Source: a virus. Taken from it: DNA of 64,000 nt. A model generated the notes under the pieces. The model was not told where the DNA came from. It ran no database searches and saw only the letters and a program-made list of their open reading frames with translations. The stretch lies in IMG/VR virus record IMGVR_UViG_3300047089_000244, positions 105,967 through 169,966 of that record. One strand, written 5' to 3'. Within the stretch, counting starts at the first letter, position 1, and every line of letters begins with the position of its first letter. A program made the position numbers and the translations under genes. Of this stretch, positions 16,433 through 53,087 are shown piece by piece.

Positions 16433-19400
16433 TCATACCTCCGGTTGTGCGTTGATATACTCTTGCGCTCGCTGGAGTAACGCGCTCTTCTCATTGAGAG
16501 TCGGGTCCGCCACCACATCGTTAGTTAGCTGTCGTAGGATTGTACCAACTTGTGGTCCCGGTTTCAAGCCGAGAGCCAAGAGGTCGTTCCCGTTGACGCT
16601 AATCGCCGACTGGGTGGTAGGCGCTCCGGACTGCCGAGACTGCTCCACGAGTTCGCGCATCGTATCAACAGGCGTCTTATAGGACGTATCGATTCCTTTG
16701 CCCTCGTTATCAGCCGCACGGAGCGTTAAGAGGTCATCTGCCGCCTCTCCCGTCTTGTTCAGGAACTTACGAGCCCCCTTAGCACTAGAGAATTGCGGGA
16801 ACATGTGCTGCGAGATCAAGTTGTGAATGTTGCGAATTTTGGTGACCGGATAGTTAAAGGTCTGGCGTAGGCGAGCCTCAGTCATATCCGCTCCGACTTT
16901 GGCGTGGTCGGCTCCCACTGGGACCCCTTCCAGCATGCCCGCGTAGTAGTGTGTCACGCCCGTCGCTGGGTCTATCCATGCAGAAGCGGGCTTGCCCGTA
17001 TCATGCAAGAGAGCAGCTAGGCGCAGGTCTGGATCTTTGGAAGCGCGCGAGACATTATCGAACACATTTAGGCTATGCTCACCTAGTGAATAATTATGGT
17101 GAGGGTTTTTCTGATCATAGTCGAAGTTATTCGCTAGCTCAGGGAAGAGATGTTTGAGTACGCCTGTTTCCTGAGCCAAGCGGAATGCGCCCGCTGGATT
17201 AGCGCTCGTCAGAAGCTTCTCAAGCTGTTGCTTTAGCGCATCAGGTGACTCCTGATCCAGACGGTGAGCGTACTCTTCCATCTCCTTACGCGTCTGCTCG
17301 TCCGGAACCAGTCCGTGGCGGGAGTGCATCGTGAGGGCTCGGACCAAACGTGTTGGGTCCTCATCGAATGATCCTGGGTGAGTAGTCCGTAAAGTATGGG
17401 ACTCAATGTCTCTAGCTCCTCCGTAGGGATCAAGCAATCGCCCCGACGAGTCAAGATCAACGGCCATAGAATTGGCCGTAAAGTCTCGTCGCTGTAAGTC
17501 TTTCTCGATTGGGAGATGATGATCGACTGTGATTTTTCCTTGTCCACGGGTTCCTCCTGATTCGTATGTGTCGGTGCGAGGAAGTGCGATCTCGACCTCT
17601 TGGCCTTTGGTATGATAGCGGTAGACGCCAAAGCGCTTACCCGTAAGATCCACGCGGCCCGGTAGATGCTCCAAGATGTTATTCACGTCCTCGGGCGGAA
17701 TACCCGATACCATAAGATCAATGTCCTTAGGCTCCTTCTGAAGGAGAGCATCTCGCACGGCTCCACCAACGACATAGACCTTACCGCCAGCTTCTTTAAG
17801 AGCTTGTGAGGCCGTCCAAGCAGCACCATCAGCAGCCGTAATCGAACGGATGTATGTGCCTACGTCCGCCGAAGCAACCTTGTGCTTTTCTCCTGTCTGG
17901 CTTTCCATTTCGAGGCTCGTGATCTCTAGTCCTGGGTGACTATAGTACCACAACTGCATCATGTGATATGTGGAGAACGGGATAGTAGTCGTCGTATTGA
18001 TGACCATCTTACCCTTTGGTTCGTAGTATCCCTCCACGATGCCACCTGGTGTAAACTGCCCCATGATGTCTGGAGTACGCATACCGGGGTGGCCTACCGT
18101 GATATAGTCCTTTTCGATGTCGTAGATGAAGGGGATTGGAGCCTGAAGCAAGTCCTTTCCTTCTTTGCCGCCTGCGGCCTCGAAGTGCCACCCCGCTTCG
18201 TTCCTCCATCCAGGACCAATCGGTTGTAGGTGTTCTGGAAGTTGAGAAGTTCCGTCTCTCTGTGCCTGCACGAACTCCTTAACCCGGTTCAAGTGAGATA
18301 CGTCCTCAGGAAGATCATCCTCTGTGATGTATTGGCCCCCGTGTGCGCCTATTTCTGTAGCGTGCTTGCCACGAGGGTCATAGGAGAACGAAGCATGTGG
18401 CCAATTGTTGGGATCTCTCAAAGAGAGATTCATGTCCGCCCCCATTACATGCTGACTAGAAGGATCGTAAACCATATCGTTTTGATCCTCTGATGTGCCC
18501 ATACCTCCCCAGCAATGGTGCATCATGTCCCCCTCTCTACCAACCTCATTCCAGCTAGGCAAATGTCGAATAGTCCACCCATCAGGAAATTGATGAAGAA
18601 TCTCCGTCTGCTCTGGTCCATGTACCTCTTCGAGTTTTGTCTTAAACCGTTGTTGTTGAGGAACGGTCATTCGTCCGAAGTGCCATTTGTCTGATGAAAC
18701 AAAAGCCCCCATCACAGGAATAGCCGTAGGTGTGACGTTGCGCGGTCGCAGTGGCAATGGCTCGTCTTTGTCTTCGATGGTCGGGAAGTGTCCGTCATCG
18801 ATCGGCGCAGCTTTGGGGTCCTGGTGATCCTGCGTATGCATAACGTAGGCTTTGAAATCTGGTAGCGTCTCGTTGCAATATGGGCAGGTGAGTTGACCTT
18901 GGGGCTCGCCATCAAAAGCTTTGCCCGGTTCTGCTTCTGGATCGCCCTTGTCGTATGTGGTCGGCCACTCCTTGTTCTTGATACGATCGTTCATGTCCGT
19001 GCCACCTGGGTACTCTGCAATGCGATACCCAAAGTCATCTGCCCATTCGATTAGTCCCGGCAGAGCAAACGGATTTGGAGGACGGTTGAAACTAGCTGTA
19101 CGACCTACTATCTCGATCTCATCGTGATTACCCCAGAACGGGCGACTGCTGAGCTTAAGCTTACCCTCGCGCCATCCATACCAGTATGACTTCTTGGCTC
19201 CAAAATCATCATGAATTGGTTGACCACTGCTATCTACCAAGCCACCCCACTTCCATCCAACTTGCTTGCTGTAATCCTTCATCATTTTTACTAGCCCGCG
19301 CAAGCCGATGTTGCTCTCGACACTCCAGAGAGCATCACGTCCGCGCACATTGACATACCCAACGGCCATCGGGCCGTTATGATCGGGAGCGATCTGAGCC

Positions 19401-20140
19401 TCTTCTGCCATCTGTTCGTGGTCGTCTACGGGTGAGACTTTGAACTCGCCGTTGCCGAAGATGAACTTATACTCATGCTCAACAGGTTCCTCCATCGAGA
19501 GATTGAGGTCGTCTATCACCGGGTCGTGGAAATCGCGTTGATTGAATTCCTCTTCTGCCTGCGGGCCTTCGCCAGGATACGCGTCGGAACCCGATCCACC
19601 GGAGTCGGCTTGCTTCAGAATCTTACCCTCTAGAGCGGCATTAGCACGTTCGGCAAATAACTGTGATCGCTGAGTGATGTTTGGCGACTGTTCTAGGTCT
19701 TCCCAGTCACGTTTGTCCTGTCCTGGTTGAGGATCACTCTGAATGCGGAAGTCGCGATAGAGAGGATTGGTTGCATGCGTGTAGACAATTGGGCCTGGCC
19801 TATGGCGCATCTGTTCAGGCTCATACTCATAGGGCTCATCCTCCGCGTCTTGTGGGCGCGGCGTACCTTTGACAGGAGTGAAAGCATACTGGTCGCCTGT
19901 GAGATCCACGACGTAATTCCTATCTGGGCTCACCCAGAAGAAGTGACCTTCCTTCTGGCCAATATGTCCGCCGCCGAGCTTGCTCTGAAGCCACTTAGAT
20001 GTAACGTAACAATGTCCAGCGCTCGGCTGTGGATGACCGCGAGAGTCCTCGGGGCGTGTCTCATCTGACCATGCGTGTTCTGCTGCGCGGCGTAGCTCGT
20101 GCAGTTTCTCTTGTGTGATCGTGTCTGGATCAAATCCCAT
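16433..20140 (-). CDS. cca: Multi-module protein ending in a class II CCA-adding enzyme (tRNA nucleotidyltransferase plus HD)
   Basis: VYVVGGAVRDALL...DIDL, DLQRRDFTANSMA, DPYGG, F.EDPTRLVRA, ALLHDTGKP. About 755 aa of N-terminal modules: YunG-like, C2H2 Zn finger, PcfJ-like. Confidence 0.9.
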   Translation of the reverse strand: MGFDPDTITQEKLHELRRAAEHAWSDETRPEDSRGHPQPSAGHCYVTSKWLQSKLGGGHIGQKEGHFFWVSPDRNYVVDLTGDQYAFTPVKGTPRPQDAEDEPYEYEPEQMRHRPGPIVYTHATNPLYRDFRIQSDPQPGQDKRDWEDLEQSPNITQRSQLFAERANAALEGKILKQADSGGSGSDAYPGEGPQAEEEFNQRDFHDPVIDDLNLSMEEPVEHEYKFIFGNGEFKVSPVDDHEQMAEEAQIAPDHNGPMAVGYVNVRGRDALWSVESNIGLRGLVKMMKDYSKQVGWKWGGLVDSSGQPIHDDFGAKKSYWYGWREGKLKLSSRPFWGNHDEIEIVGRTASFNRPPNPFALPGLIEWADDFGYRIAEYPGGTDMNDRIKNKEWPTTYDKGDPEAEPGKAFDGEPQGQLTCPYCNETLPDFKAYVMHTQDHQDPKAAPIDDGHFPTIEDKDEPLPLRPRNVTPTAIPVMGAFVSSDKWHFGRMTVPQQQRFKTKLEEVHGPEQTEILHQFPDGWTIRHLPSWNEVGREGDMMHHCWGGMGTSEDQNDMVYDPSSQHVMGADMNLSLRDPNNWPHASFSYDPRGKHATEIGAHGGQYITEDDLPEDVSHLNRVKEFVQAQRDGTSQLPEHLQPIGPGWRNEAGWHFEAAGGKEGKDLLQAPIPFIYDIEKDYITVGHPGMRTPDIMGQFTPGGIVEGYYEPKGKMVINTTTTIPFSTYHMMQLWYYSHPGLEITSLEMESQTGEKHKVASADVGTYIRSITAADGAAWTASQALKEAGGKVYVVGGAVRDALLQKEPKDIDLMVSGIPPEDVNNILEHLPGRVDLTGKRFGVYRYHTKGQEVEIALPRTDTYESGGTRGQGKITVDHHLPIEKDLQRRDFTANSMAVDLDSSGRLLDPYGGARDIESHTLRTTHPGSFDEDPTRLVRALTMHSRHGLVPDEQTRKEMEEYAHRLDQESPDALKQQLEKLLTSANPAGAFRLAQETGVLKHLFPELANNFDYDQKNPHHNYSLGEHSLNVFDNVSRASKDPDLRLAALLHDTGKPASAWIDPATGVTHYYAGMLEGVPVGADHAKVGADMTEARLRQTFNYPVTKIRNIHNLISQHMFPQFSSAKGARKFLNKTGEAADDLLTLRAADNEGKGIDTSYKTPVDTMRELVEQSRQSGAPTTQSAISVNGNDLLALGLKPGPQVGTILRQLTNDVVADPTLNEKSALLQRAQEYINAQPEV

Positions 20141-39489: not shown

Positions 39490-39936
39490 CTACTTACGCA
39501 AGAAAAACTTGTGCCTTTTAGACCCTCTGTAACCCGTATCTGGGAGACCACCAGGGGTCATTTTCATCTCAGGATTTTTCTCTCGGTAGAGTTTGAACTC
39601 CTGAAACGTCGCTGCCGTGTGAGGATCGTCGCGATCTACAACCTCGACGCCAAGCGCTGTGACTGAGTGAGGGCGGATCTCCGTGTGACCCTCATCGATG
39701 ATGAGCTTCGTCTTGAAGCCTCGCTCCTCGATATAGTGCTTGATTACCATCAGGTGCATGTCATCCTCTGCCAGCATCACGAGCTTGCAGTAGTGACCGC
39801 CCTTGTACCAATCTGCAAGCAGATTGGGGTCGCTGATCCGGTACGCCTCGACGGCTGCATGCTGCCCCTGAGCAGTCATCTTGCCCGAGGTCATTCCGAG
39901 ACTTCTATTGATGAAGCTATACATGGCTGTTCGCAT
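39490..39936 (-). CDS. pth2: Peptidyl-tRNA hydrolase, Pth2 type
   Basis: M..GK..AQ..HA, KLV, IDEGHTEI...S.TALG; ATG 6 nt after TGATAGACT. Confidence 0.9.
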   Translation of the reverse strand: MRTAMYSFINRSLGMTSGKMTAQGQHAAVEAYRISDPNLLADWYKGGHYCKLVMLAEDDMHLMVIKHYIEERGFKTKLIIDEGHTEIRPHSVTALGVEVVDRDDPHTAATFQEFKLYREKNPEMKMTPGGLPDTGYRGSKRHKFFLRK

Positions 39937-40157
39937 GCACATAGTCTATCACAGAGGCTTGCGCGGTGGGAACACTTCGGACTTTGGTCCTACTGACCGC
40001 AGTCTCACTCGCGTTCACCGCGCAAGCTGTCTCCGAGCAGGGTCTCCGCTGAACGAACGTAGTGTATCACAAGTGCGCCCGCCCAGTTTGACCCAGACGC
40101 GCGCATGAGGACCCGAGGTCACCCAGCCGAACTGAATATGCCCGAAGCTAAGGTCCA

Positions 40158-40229
40158 AGCCTACACTCAGAATCGAACTGAGTTCTCTAGTTTACAAGAC
40201 TAGCGCGTCACCACTTACGCTTTGCAGGC
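40158..40229 (-). tRNA. tRNA-Thr (TGT)
   Basis: Full cloverleaf. Confidence 0.9.
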
Positions 40230-40235
40230 ACATCA

Positions 40236-40579
40236 TGTAGTCGATAAGCCGGATTCTGTCGTTGGACGATCATCCTTCTCAGTGGCGTGCCGACTAGGCC
40301 CAACGACCCTTTGGCGCTTGAGCTAACCCGAGGTCTCACACGATTCCACTGGTCCCCATGTTACCGGGGACTGCTCCCACCAGCTAATGCCATAGGCAGA
40401 GCCCTTAGGCTTCGACACTTGGGATTGCATCTCTCGGCTTCGTATGCGGTCATAGCGGCCTAAGCCTCCCGCCATCCACGTCACCTATCCAGCACCCCTT
40501 GTGAGGGATCTGAGTTTCCCCAGACGAGATGTCCGGACTTTCCTCGGAGGGATCGGACCTCCGCGATCGTCTGACTACA
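40236..40579 (-). ncRNA. rnpB: RNase P RNA (divergent)
   Basis: CR-I GAGGAAAGUCCGG (40545-40533), CR-V ACAGAAUCCGGCUUAU (40259-40244), P1 UGUAGUC/GACUACA, P2 GACGAUC/GAUCGUC, P3 GGAGG/CCUCC, P5-like CAUCUC/GAGAUG-CAA. Confidence 0.92.
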
Positions 40580-40679
40580 GGATCATGATGGGATTCGAAC
40601 CCACACCTGGGCACTCGCCTCTGCCAATTGATCCACTTACAGAGTTCCGTACGCTTCTGCAAGCAGGCCCTACATGATC
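40580..40679 (-). ncRNA. tRNA-like RNA with acceptor and T arms only
   Basis: GATCATG/CATGATC and GTGGG-TTCGAAT-CCCAT; no canonical D or anticodon arm. Confidence 0.6.
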
Positions 40680-40827: not shown

Positions 40828-40917
40828 CGGTACCGTGGGGATTCGAACCCAACCGCCTCGTTAGAGCGATTTCCCGCTTGAAAGGCGTTCTGCACTCCAA
40901 AGTGCTTTCATGGTACC
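40828..40917 (-). tRNA. allo-tRNA/tRNA-Sec-like fold, anticodon TTC
   Basis: 9-bp acceptor with one mismatch, 3-bp T stem, GCACT-TTGG-AGTGC D arm, long V arm, G73. Confidence 0.5.
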
Positions 40918-40934: not shown

Positions 40935-41297
40935 TCAAGAGCCGTGTGTACGCTCCCGGTGGCAGTTCGAGCAAACGACCTCGCACTTGTCGATCTCCTC
41001 CTGGATAACTTCCAGGCGATATCGTTGTGCTACGAGCCAATTGACACTGCCAAACTTCTCCCCACGTACATGATCGAAGTCCATGACGTAGGGCGGATAC
41101 TGGACCCCGCAGTCGGCACAAGGAACTTCCTTTTGCGCGTTGATGTGCGCCATGATCTCAGCACGTTTGTTTGCCGCCCAGGTGTTGCGCTTGATCTTCC
41201 ACTCGGATAGCTGGTGCTCCGCGAGGTAGCGATCCTTGTTGCGCTGGTAACTCCGTTGTTGAGCGGCGCGCTGCTTGCCTTTGTCCTTGTACGGCAT
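40935..41297 (-). CDS. HNH endonuclease
   Basis: CADC...MDFDH...KCEVVCSNCHRERT. Confidence 0.9.
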   Translation of the reverse strand: MPYKDKGKQRAAQQRSYQRNKDRYLAEHQLSEWKIKRNTWAANKRAEIMAHINAQKEVPCADCGVQYPPYVMDFDHVRGEKFGSVNWLVAQRYRLEVIQEEIDKCEVVCSNCHRERTHGS

Positions 41298-45473: not shown

Positions 45474-45492
45474 CGGAAGGTGAAGGAGTCAA
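45474..45492 (-). pseudogene. tRNA-Ser-like 3' remnant
   Basis: GACTCCTTCACCTTCCG overlapping the HNH stop. Confidence 0.45.
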
Positions 45493-45845
45493 GGATTAGG
45501 AGAACGACTACTATTGCAACGCAAGTGAGAGAAAGCAATGTTCTCCATATCCCAAAACAAATCCGCATCGACACCCAACCAAGATTGCTTATGCTCAATA
45601 CTTAAATCAGATTCATTCTCAATGATCCCTCCGCAATGAAAGCAAACATTCCGATCGGTATCACAAACGAGCATAAAAAGAACCTTCTTGCGCAATCTAT
45701 GCGCTGCGGTGCCCCATGGCATACCCAACTGTTCCGCCTTCTTCAGGTGGCTTTTCGACGGAATCACCGTCCCGTCAGCCTTACGTTCCTTGTAACGACG
45801 TGCATTATATTTACGCACGGCCTCTTTATCCCTGGATACGGGCAT
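45489..45845 (-). CDS. HNH endonuclease
   Basis: CFHCG...LSIEH.....ENIAFSHLRCN. Confidence 0.85.
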   Translation of the reverse strand: MPVSRDKEAVRKYNARRYKERKADGTVIPSKSHLKKAEQLGMPWGTAAHRLRKKVLFMLVCDTDRNVCFHCGGIIENESDLSIEHKQSWLGVDADLFWDMENIAFSHLRCNSSRSPNP

Positions 45846-45864
45846 ACGGAATAGTATATCATAA

Positions 45865-45948
45865 CGGAAGCGTAGAGAGTCGAACTCTAGAGGGCTCATC
45901 ACCCCAGGCGGGTTCAAACCGCTGTCCTCAGCCAACCGGATCACTTCC
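45865..45948 (-). tRNA. tRNA-Ser (TGA)
   Basis: Long V arm, G73. Confidence 0.82.
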
Positions 45949-46006
45949 AAGGGGGTCCGTCCGAGAGCCTTGTTCAGGCCGGGGACGGCTGCCCCGTTGA
46001 GTTGAG

Positions 46007-46557: not shown

Positions 46558-46733
46558 ATACTATCGGCGAGGGAAACGAGGAGCACCCGTATCTTTAGTA
46601 ATTGACTTAAAGATTTTCGCCACAAATGTTAAAACTATAAATAGCCAAAGAAAATAGAACACTAGGCATGTGATACCTACTATTAGTAGTATCAAAAAAG
46701 CGACATGTTTTCCTTTGGTTGGGGTGCAAAAAG

Positions 46734-47079
46734 TGGACCATCCCGGAATCGAACCGGGGTCTTGTTGTGATTATCGATCTAGCTATCTAGCATCTTGGGA
46801 CAGGCTTGGCCCGTCTCCACCACTCGGTTTATGTCCGAGAACATACTGCTTTCGCGGGGTGCTACCATGAGCACTTTCTGTTCCTAGGTATGTGCTCCTA
46901 CCCGGCGCTGGCGATTAAGCCAGAGCGAGATGTGTCTCGCGTGCCGTGAAGCTTCCATCAAGGAAGCTTGCCGGAATAGCGAGAGTATCATCATTGCCAG
47001 TTATGGCTTGTGCGATTTAGGTGTCGCAACCGATGCACTAGAGGGACTCTCGGGCAACAATCGAATACCCATATGGCCC
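46734..47079 (-). ncRNA. ssrA: tmRNA
   Basis: GGGCCAU/AUGGUCC-A acceptor with G3.U70; T arm CCCGG-UUCGAUU-CCGGG; AUAACU then tag ORF 46998-46915 GNDDTLAIPASFLDGSFTARETHLALA*. Confidence 0.92.
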
Positions 47080-48743: not shown

Positions 48744-48838
48744 TGCGCCTGATGGGATTTGAACCCACATCCGTCGGTGTGAAAAACCGATGCTGGGGAC
48801 AGGTTATGAAGCTGCCTCTACCATTCAGCTACAGACGC
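48744..48838 (-). tRNA. tRNA-Glu (TTC) with hairpin inserted in D loop
   Basis: GCGTCTG/CAGGCGC; TCGGT-TTTTCAC-ACCGA; about 20 extra nt in D region. Confidence 0.65.
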
Positions 48839-52373: not shown

Positions 52374-53087
52374 CTACCTCACCTCGTCAATGAAACCATA
52401 GCCGAGCGCTGTATCAGCGGTCATCCACCAATCCTTACGACTCCAACTACGTTTGATGAATCCCTTGGTGGTCTTTTTGTTGATCAATTCTGCTCGGGAG
52501 GCGAAGAGATTCAGGATACGCTCGTGCATGATCTCCACAAATTTGACCTGATCCTCGATCTTACCGAAGGAACCGACTGCTCCGAATTGCGCCTCGTGGA
52601 TAAGAAGGAAAGCGTTCTCACCCATAATACGCTTGTTGCCTGTCTGAAGAAGGACGCCAGCCATTGATGCCGCAGCACCCAAAGCCCTCGTGTTGATCGT
52701 GTGTCCTTTGGCGCGAAGATCGAAGATGAAATCGACTAGCGCAAAGCCATCGATAACCGCCCCCCCAGGAGAGTTAATCTGAAGCTCGATCTCGCAGTTG
52801 TCCTTCTGCCTAGTCCAAAGTACCAACTGATTGATGCACGCCTTGACTGAATCTTCATCAACCGGCCTGTCGAAAACGTACACGGAGTTGTGCTGGTTCT
52901 TTGCAAGCTCATCTAACTCAGCACGTTTCTTTGCGGCCAGCAAGATCTCTGCTTGCTTTGCTTCGGCAGTTACTTTGCGAGCCTCGGCTCTGTGAAGCTG
53001 AGCTTCCTCGTGAGCGGCCTCGGCCTCGGCCGTAAACTTGTTACGCTCCTCGATAGTTGTCTCCTTATCTTCTTTTCTGGCGGGCAT
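52374..53087 (-). CDS. clpP: ClpP-family serine protease
   Basis: INSPGG, AASMA (Ser), LIH (His), DWWMTA..A...GFID. Confidence 0.9.
   Translation of the reverse strand: MPARKEDKETTIEERNKFTAEAEAAHEEAQLHRAEARKVTAEAKQAEILLAAKKRAELDELAKNQHNSVYVFDRPVDEDSVKACINQLVLWTRQKDNCEIELQINSPGGAVIDGFALVDFIFDLRAKGHTINTRALGAAASMAGVLLQTGNKRIMGENAFLLIHEAQFGAVGSFGKIEDQVKFVEIMHERILNLFASRAELINKKTTKGFIKRSWSRKDWWMTADTALGYGFIDEVR

Follow-up and report, generated by a model that had tools for sequence, protein, structure and literature searches.

The window, that is, the whole stretch of 64,000 nucleotides analysed here, comes from a virus record of 169,966 bp that is rated 100% complete, shows an end overlap (122/127 nt) and carries both portal and large terminase genes. 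The source is a near-complete 170-kb tailed soil phage, whose nearest cultured phages, the Bxz1-like mycobacteriophages, share merely 34% terminase identity with it. Between 39197 and 50453, on the minus strand, lies an array of 36 tRNAs predicted by ARAGORN and one more detected by Rfam, with a tmRNA and several small ORFs without family. None of the array tRNAs encodes a full CCA tail upon inspection, and 25 of the 36 leaders carry U at position -1 (against a background of 23%; p = 6e-9), which shows that the array is shaped for RNase P; this U fits any RNase P, host or phage.

The phage also encodes a protein of 1235 aa that includes a tRNA nucleotidyltransferase (CCA-adding) module (16433–20140, minus strand; PHROG 2244, E = 1e-61; Pfam PolyA_pol and HD), a peptidyl-tRNA hydrolase Pth2 (39490–39942, minus strand; PF01981, E = 1e-17) and an RNA ligase. 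The first of these is a fusion in which a YunG-like N terminus and about 670 unassigned residues precede the CCA-adding enzyme and the HD domain. The tmRNA (46733–47079, minus strand) specifies a 27-residue tag ending in LALA, and a ClpP gene is found at 52374–53087. Two HNH endonuclease genes interrupt the array (40935–41297 and 45489–45950, both on the minus strand). ARAGORN missed a 95-nt tRNA whose variable arm is long and whose anticodon arm is irregular (48744–48838, minus strand; Rfam 60.9 bits), and both ARAGORN and Rfam missed a tRNA-like RNA at 40830–40917 (minus strand) with an acceptor of about 9 bp, a canonical T loop on a 3-bp stem, a 5-bp D stem with a 4-nt loop and a long variable arm, a shape that we take to recall allo-tRNA (9/3) or tRNA-Sec.

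The predicted RNase P RNA gene and its homologues

Inside the array, the minus strand at 40579–40236 carries a gene of 344 nt for RNase P RNA, which the initial annotation had proposed from the letters alone, leaving its strand unstated, as a phage-encoded ribozyme. The covariance-model search suggested there was carried out with cmscan and matched RF00010 at 56.9 bits (E = 1.6e-16, E-value scan), with model positions 1–367 aligned to 40582–40229. This is also the best-scoring Rfam family within its clan. The score does not reach the RF00010 gathering cut-off of 100 bits, so that routine annotation misses the gene: a default Rfam scan listed only tRNAs at the locus and no RNase P RNA. A loose pattern covering both P4 regions occurred once in the phage genome and in only one of 200 shuffled genomes. 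The minimum free energy fold of the 344-nt RNA was not exceptional on its own (z = -0.83), which is unsurprising because the RNA is pseudoknotted.

A search among IMG/VR terminase relatives (43–87% identity), the kind of viral-database check that the initial annotation had called for, recovered seven distinct homologues at the same tRNA-array position in related phages. RF00010 detected four of them at 25–63 bits and missed three, which were identified by hand (L011, L015 and L022). In a MAFFT alignment of seven sequences, pairs were counted in helices P2, P3, P4, P5 and the GNRA helix: 96% of the 231 cells pair, 19 of 33 pairs show two-sided changes, none of 500 shuffles reached the observed pairing and slid registers paired at 26–45%. 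Such statistics come from few related sequences (7–8) and from a structure drawn from the window, which biases them in favour, and the shuffle counts are not probabilities. RNA-core identity and terminase identity gave rho = 0.56 (p = 0.19, n = 7). Together, the model match and the covariation confirmed, at the level of sequence, that this is an RNase P RNA gene, and the portal and terminase genes on the same contig of a complete record bore out its attribution to a phage; its catalysis would follow from conservation.

One homologue (L015) belongs to a provirus in Candidatus Solirubrobacter pratensis URHD0082, a strain that has its own normal rnpB (247 bits, on a contig other than that of the prophage) and rnpA. 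The prophage, which also carries a tmRNA, hints that the host of the clade is an actinobacterium. A search of 401 genomes of the class of this strain returned nothing beyond the known prophage, an RNR query for host assignment found no match and a P3-loop pattern searched in GTDB found no cellular match. Likewise, blastn of the window RNA and the prophage homologue against 50,697 GenBank phages produced no real match, and RF00010 plus a P4 pattern found nothing in five cultured distant relatives (Bxz1, Myrna, ScoobyDoobyDoo, CherryTomatoes and E3), a result that leaves absence unproven, as three true clade members likewise escaped RF00010 and the P4 pattern is narrow in spacing. From these sequences, the gene may be dispensable in the cultured tRNA-array phages or too diverged to be detected there. 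With a looser pattern, complementary P4 strands turned up in about 14 more viral contigs; many of these lie amid tRNAs and some look nearly cellular. Separately, dense tRNA arrays of metagenome contigs of putative viral origin (L031, L045, L061, L070, L081, L086, L094 and L104) hold another group of RNase P RNAs, which are compact (~260–280 nt). Taken together, these searches point to a widespread class.

A conserved catalytic core and a remodelled specificity domain

All the elements listed in the initial annotation (P1, P2, P3, both P4 strands, P5 and CR-IV) were found on the minus strand, with P1, P2, P3 and P5 in the order and nesting of the universal RNase P RNA core. The 5′ strand of P1 (40573–40579) pairs with 40236–40242 (7/7 bp) and that of P2 (40565–40571) with 40265–40271 (7/7 bp); in the seven-sequence alignment, 49 of 49 P2 cells are paired, with two-sided changes in two pairs. 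The P3 hairpin (40545–40563, 6/6 bp) is 97.6% paired in the same alignment, with two-sided changes in four of its six pairs. CR-I and the P4 5′ strand (GAGGAAAGUCCGGA, 40532–40545) and CR-V with the P4 3′ strand (40245–40260, the strand itself being 40253–40246) follow the RF00010 alignment and form eight of eight base pairs around a bulged U at 40537. This helix is paired in 56 of 56 aligned cells, two-sided changes occur in four of its pairs, and the bulged U is invariant. P5 and P7 form a single helix (40526–40531 with 40428–40433, 6/6 bp) without J5/6 or a P6 strand; this helix measures 5–7 bp in all eight clade members versus 4 bp in the Solirubrobacter host RNA.

Next to it, J5/15 (40425–40427) reads CAA in seven of eight members and AAA in the other. 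P15, P16, P17 and L15 occupy 40375–40424 (P15 being 40424–40421 with 40378–40375), and the GGU of L15 (40381–40379) is kept in 8/8 members; the L15 of the window RNA is one spacer base shorter than that of most relatives, a shortening common to its near relatives. CR-IV, or J18/2 (AGAAGGAUG, 40271–40279), lies in a string spanning 40280–40265, just before the P2 3′ strand, and its AGnnnGAU motif occurs in all eight members and in the host RNA. CR-I, CR-IV, CR-V, J5/15 (C/A)AA and L15 GGU are thus present throughout the clade (8/8). We take the bulged U at 40537 to be the equivalent of E. coli U69, the J5/15 AA that of A248/A249 and the L15 GGU that of G292–U294, presumably the pairing site for the tRNA 3′-RCCA. 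In E. coli, U69, A248 and G292–U294 serve in metal binding, stacking on the first tRNA pair and pairing with the tRNA 3′ end, respectively (PMC11143913). The catalytic domain is, judging from these residues and helices, intact. Near relatives recovered from soil runs have cores 95–99% alike, whereas their P12, P15.1-like hairpin and P18 differ in sequence, and the replacement sequences that were folded again form hairpins. Constant core residues with swapped P12, P15.1 and P18 are the pattern that purifying selection on catalysis would leave.

The specificity domain, in turn, is predicted to be strongly remodelled across the clade, a feature absent from the initial annotation. It measures 104 nt in the window RNA versus 169 in the Solirubrobacter host RNA: P6, P13 and P14 are absent, P5 continues straight into P7 and L17 has 3 nt. 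Its first element is a GNRA-capped, P9-like hairpin (40509–40524), with two-sided changes in five of six pairs and a GAAA or GCAA loop in six of eight members. A second short hairpin follows (40495–40507), probably P8-like, with a GUAAC loop in L006 and L009. Clade comparison then delimits a predicted elbow-reading module (40446–40472) made, in this order, of P11 (GCGG/CCGC), GA, the P12 hairpin, a 7-nt loop (GCUAUGA) and P11 again. Seven of the eight members have this combination of GA and 7-nt loop, and so do four distant viral RNAs (0–1 of 100 shuffles each). Canonical CR-II (J11/12), present in the host RNA and in 69 of 77 control RNAs (mostly cellular rnpB genes returned by a metagenome scan), is found in none of the eight members, and just its terminal GA remains in the phage RNA; Pyrobaculum RNAs likewise do without CR-II (PMC3790967). 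At the CR-III (J12/13) position, the UGAAA consensus is not kept and the 7-nt loop occurs in seven of eight members; in the prophage RNA it reads GUUCGAA and resembles a tRNA T-loop. One of the two interdigitated T-loops has probably been lost in the phage RNA. Among other viral contigs, we observed minimal RNase P RNAs (L156, L167, L174, L182, L196, L207, L209 and L230), several with the GA/7-nt-loop module.

Two additions lie outside this domain. Folding places an extra 6-bp hairpin after P15 (40352–40371), P15.1-like, which has a counterpart of other sequence in another contig (X9), and P18 (6 bp; 40280–40351) holds a 60-nt insertion at 40345–40286, recognized by comparison with near relatives, which have a short hairpin in its place (with a GCAA loop in X1). 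The homologue L011 (inside 1890–2263) has an insertion related to that of the window (minus strand): short motifs are shared in the same order and a stem in both changes on both sides (GACCU/GGGUC vs GGCUC/GAGCC). The insertion had no Rfam match and, on this comparison, is possibly a small mobile RNA module. Insertions occur elsewhere in this family of RNAs: ~95 nt in P17 of a homologue in L008 (4178–4566), ~110 nt in P18 plus a P19-like arm in L023 (561–1057) and several hundred nucleotides in the S-domain region of L171. In L048 (933–1506, minus strand), inspection by eye showed an HNH-like ORF between the two P4 strands of an RNase P RNA in a phage-like tRNA array.

With type A RNAs (E. coli M1 RNA/rnpB and T. 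maritima; RF00010), the phage RNA shares P1–P5, the P4 pseudoknot with its bulged U, CR-I, CR-IV, CR-V, the J5/15 AA, P15–P17 with GGU, P18 and a GNRA hairpin in the S-domain. It differs from them in being viral and located in a tRNA array, in the absence of P6, P13 and P14, the fusion of P5 and P7 and the loss of canonical CR-II, and in having the GNRA hairpin first, an extra hairpin after P15 and the 60-nt P18 insertion. Type B RNAs lack P6, P13 and P14 and bear a P15.1 hairpin after P15. The P15.1-like hairpin of the phage RNA and its lack of the same helices recall type B (B. subtilis) and type C (Chloroflexi) RNAs; however, unlike type B (RF00011), the phage RNA has no P5.1 to make the L5.1–L15.1 contact, there being no hairpin between P5 and P7, and has P16/P17, and the likeness would more likely reflect convergence than descent. 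The phage RNA would therefore work like type A and yet belongs, by its predicted structure, to neither type A nor type B. Reduced relatives are known among cellular RNAs: the S-domain is nearly absent in Pyrobaculum-type RNase P RNA (PMC4919922), and CPR RNase P RNAs are diverged and fall under the Rfam cut-offs (PMC8172020). These share with the phage RNA an intact catalytic domain, a shrunken S-domain and their invisibility at default thresholds, but they are the sole essential copies of their cells, whereas the phage RNA is a second, viral copy with P11, P12 and the GA/7-nt-loop module.

Junctions with flanking tRNAs and proposed release of the RNA

Upstream of the gene lies a tRNA-like RNA (40580–40679, minus strand; Rfam tRNA, 26.8 bits) whose 7-bp acceptor and T arm are intact and whose D and anticodon arms are aberrant. 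Its discriminator C directly adjoins nucleotide 1 of the RNase P RNA, the abutment at 40580 that had been noticed initially. The relative X1 keeps this tRNA-like RNA; in its T stem, at 40588, G-U is replaced by G-C, which preserves pairing. The element has probably been retained as a 3′-processing signal and would fix where the RNase P RNA begins. Downstream, six bases (40235–40230, minus strand), the predicted 5′ leader of tRNA-Thr with U at -1, separate the end of P1 from +1 of tRNA-Thr(UGU) (40158–40229, minus strand; ARAGORN, +1 at 40229), the 6-nt spacing claimed before.

These junctions recur in the clade. P1 starts 0–1 nt past the discriminator of a tRNA or tRNA-like RNA in six of eight members, with an upstream neighbour that varies (tRNA-Gly, tRNA-Thr or a degenerate tRNA), and ends 3–6 nt ahead of tRNA-Thr(UGU) in five of eight. 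In the two others of eight that lack an upstream tRNA, the RNase P RNA is preceded by an ORF; therefore, tRNA punctuation is not obligatory. The ends thus lie at tRNA processing sites in most relatives, in agreement with the earlier idea that tRNA processing would excise the RNA, and the arrangement points to release by tRNA punctuation. A precedent exists in yeast mitochondria, where the RNase P RNA RPM1 sits between tRNAfMet and tRNAPro and is released via tRNase Z and RNase P (PMC3866640, PMC3790967). RPM1 differs in being organellar and AU-rich and in needing Rpm2p and further trimming, whereas the phage P1 starts 0–1 nt after the discriminator. As for the 3′ end, which the initial annotation thought that the RNA could generate itself, cleavage in trans of the pre-tRNA-Thr leader by host or phage RNase P is more plausible than cleavage in cis, which seems unlikely over a 3–6-nt linker because the leader must gain access to both the P4 centre and the RnpA cleft.

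In three soil RNA libraries, each from a different study, there are contigs that cover the counterpart of this RNA in near relatives; one of 347 nt spans 40572–40221 and another enters from the 3′ end of an upstream tRNA. Given that these contigs carry no strand, end or level information, that DNA carry-over is possible and that the runs were chosen for holding the locus, they give a weak hint of expression of the RNA in near relatives. A promoter scan performed at chance level (12 vs 9.4). One promoter-like site (40938–40910) overlaps the 5′ end of the tRNA-like RNA at 40830–40917.

A proposed phage ribozyme for phage tRNAs and competing explanations

The reading that we favour, with a probability of roughly 0.7, is that the gene specifies an active RNase P RNA that borrows the host RnpA and matures the phage tRNAs. 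It would be part of a tRNA-supply kit with the about 37 tRNAs, the tmRNA, the CCA-adding enzyme, Pth2 and the RNA ligase. The RNase P RNA would be co-transcribed with the array; its 5′ end would come from a cut by a host tRNase Z-type enzyme past the discriminator of the upstream tRNA-like RNA, and RNase P, likely in trans and initially the host enzyme, would cut at +1 of tRNA-Thr, leaving a 6-nt tail. A family search detected no RnpA, HARP-type PIN or RNase Z-type protein in the phage genome, and RnpA (PF00825) was detected in neither the phage nor its seven relatives and is present in the host of the prophage, so that the protein subunit must come from elsewhere, a point that the initial annotation did not raise. 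Host RnpA, which is interchangeable between bacteria (PMC4919922), is therefore the proposed partner and would bind the conserved surface made of P2/P3/P4, CR-IV and CR-V. The P4 metal centre, the J5/15 adenosine and the L15 GGU would then remove the 5′ leaders of phage pre-tRNAs. With a single T-loop-like element kept instead of two interdigitated ones, the rebuilt S-domain would probably grip the tRNA elbow differently or more loosely; RNase P C-domains are known to be active without the S-domain (PMC11143913). The phage might gain added processing capacity at a time of its own choosing, or no longer depend on a host RNA that is limiting or degraded. A bolder version, for which we see an even chance, is that this is an undescribed structural type in large phages that combines host RnpA, pure tRNA punctuation and a single T-loop-like GA/7-nt elbow module. 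If true, this RNA would be the first functional RNase P known from a virus genome and could act on atypical tRNA-like RNAs that are poor substrates for the host enzyme.

An active ribozyme might also work with another partner, a phage protein unrelated to RnpA, or mainly on targets other than tRNAs: the array's odd tRNA-like RNAs, for example, or polycistronic RNAs of the phage, or RNAs of the host. The similar rebuilding of the elbow module across the clade and in distant viral RNAs, the atypical tRNA-like RNAs (40580–40679 and about 40830–40917), the family-less small ORFs and the preference of S-domain-less RNase P for substrates such as pre-4.5S RNA (PMC11143913) would all suit this explanation. 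We nevertheless consider it unlikely, since the RnpA-binding surface (CR-IV, CR-V, P2 and P3) is host-like, the GGU for tRNA CCA is found in 8/8 members and the gene lies amid tRNAs in every relative.

The divergent S-domain could instead belong to a catalytically weak decoy that sequesters host RnpA or tRNA precursors and disturbs host tRNA maturation. The sole viral precedent that we found in the literature is of this kind: the RNase P-like RNA of camelpox and other orthopoxviruses has partial structural likeness to RNase P RNA, showed no activity in vitro and has been put forward as a decoy (PMC3001073). Both RNAs are viral and resemble RNase P RNA, but the phage one has the full bacterial core, covariation and a location among its predicted substrates. 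A decoy would have no need to keep the bulged U, the J5/15 adenosines and the L15 GGU in 8/8 members, and RNase P activity is a necessity for a phage whose tRNAs, about 37 in number, bear leaders, which makes a decoy role decidedly improbable.

Capture of a host rnpB that now decays as a passenger, or persists as the remnant of an integration site, might account for the low Rfam score and for the resemblance of P3 to P5 to the Solirubrobacter rnpB (81% identity over 48 core positions). Compensatory changes largely refute decay, and capture of this kind is very hard to reconcile with a full-length, syntenic and covarying RNA in phages with terminases as divergent as 43–86% identity, with a clade-wide architecture unlike that of the host and with the position of the prophage gene, mid-array and distant from the prophage ends, in a strain that retains its own rnpB. 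Finally, despite the score under the gathering level and the unremarkable folding z-score, a chance match is ruled out by the E-value, the homologues and the covariation, and an assembly chimera by independent contigs from other samples that repeat the tRNA-RNase P junctions, so that the probability left to both is negligible.

RNase P RNA is regarded as a cellular housekeeping ribozyme, and it serves as a marker of complete cellular genomes (PMC8172020). Our literature search found no phage RNase P RNA, within a coverage that is thin for subscription journals, so that one may have been reported before; recent reviews and the huge-phage survey are silent on it, and Bcheck does not mention viruses. 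The translation-support kits of that survey, with tRNAs, tmRNA and a CCA-adding enzyme, provide the same genomic setting as that of the phage RNA, and RNase P is mentioned zero times there (Al-Shayeb 2020, PMC7162821). This locus contributes an elbow module that is rebuilt, tRNA punctuation that is exact to the base across a clade and a homologue carried by the prophage of a named host. The system is tractable, with an RNA of 344 nt, predicted substrates adjoining it and a Solirubrobacter prophage strain with its own rnpB and rnpA for comparison, and its natural variants lend themselves to the question of how much of the specificity domain, and which parts, an RNase P RNA requires. It also bears on how phages with large tRNA arrays mature their tRNAs during host shut-off. 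A conserved phage version of RNase P RNA would add ribozyme-based RNA processing to what phages bring into cells.
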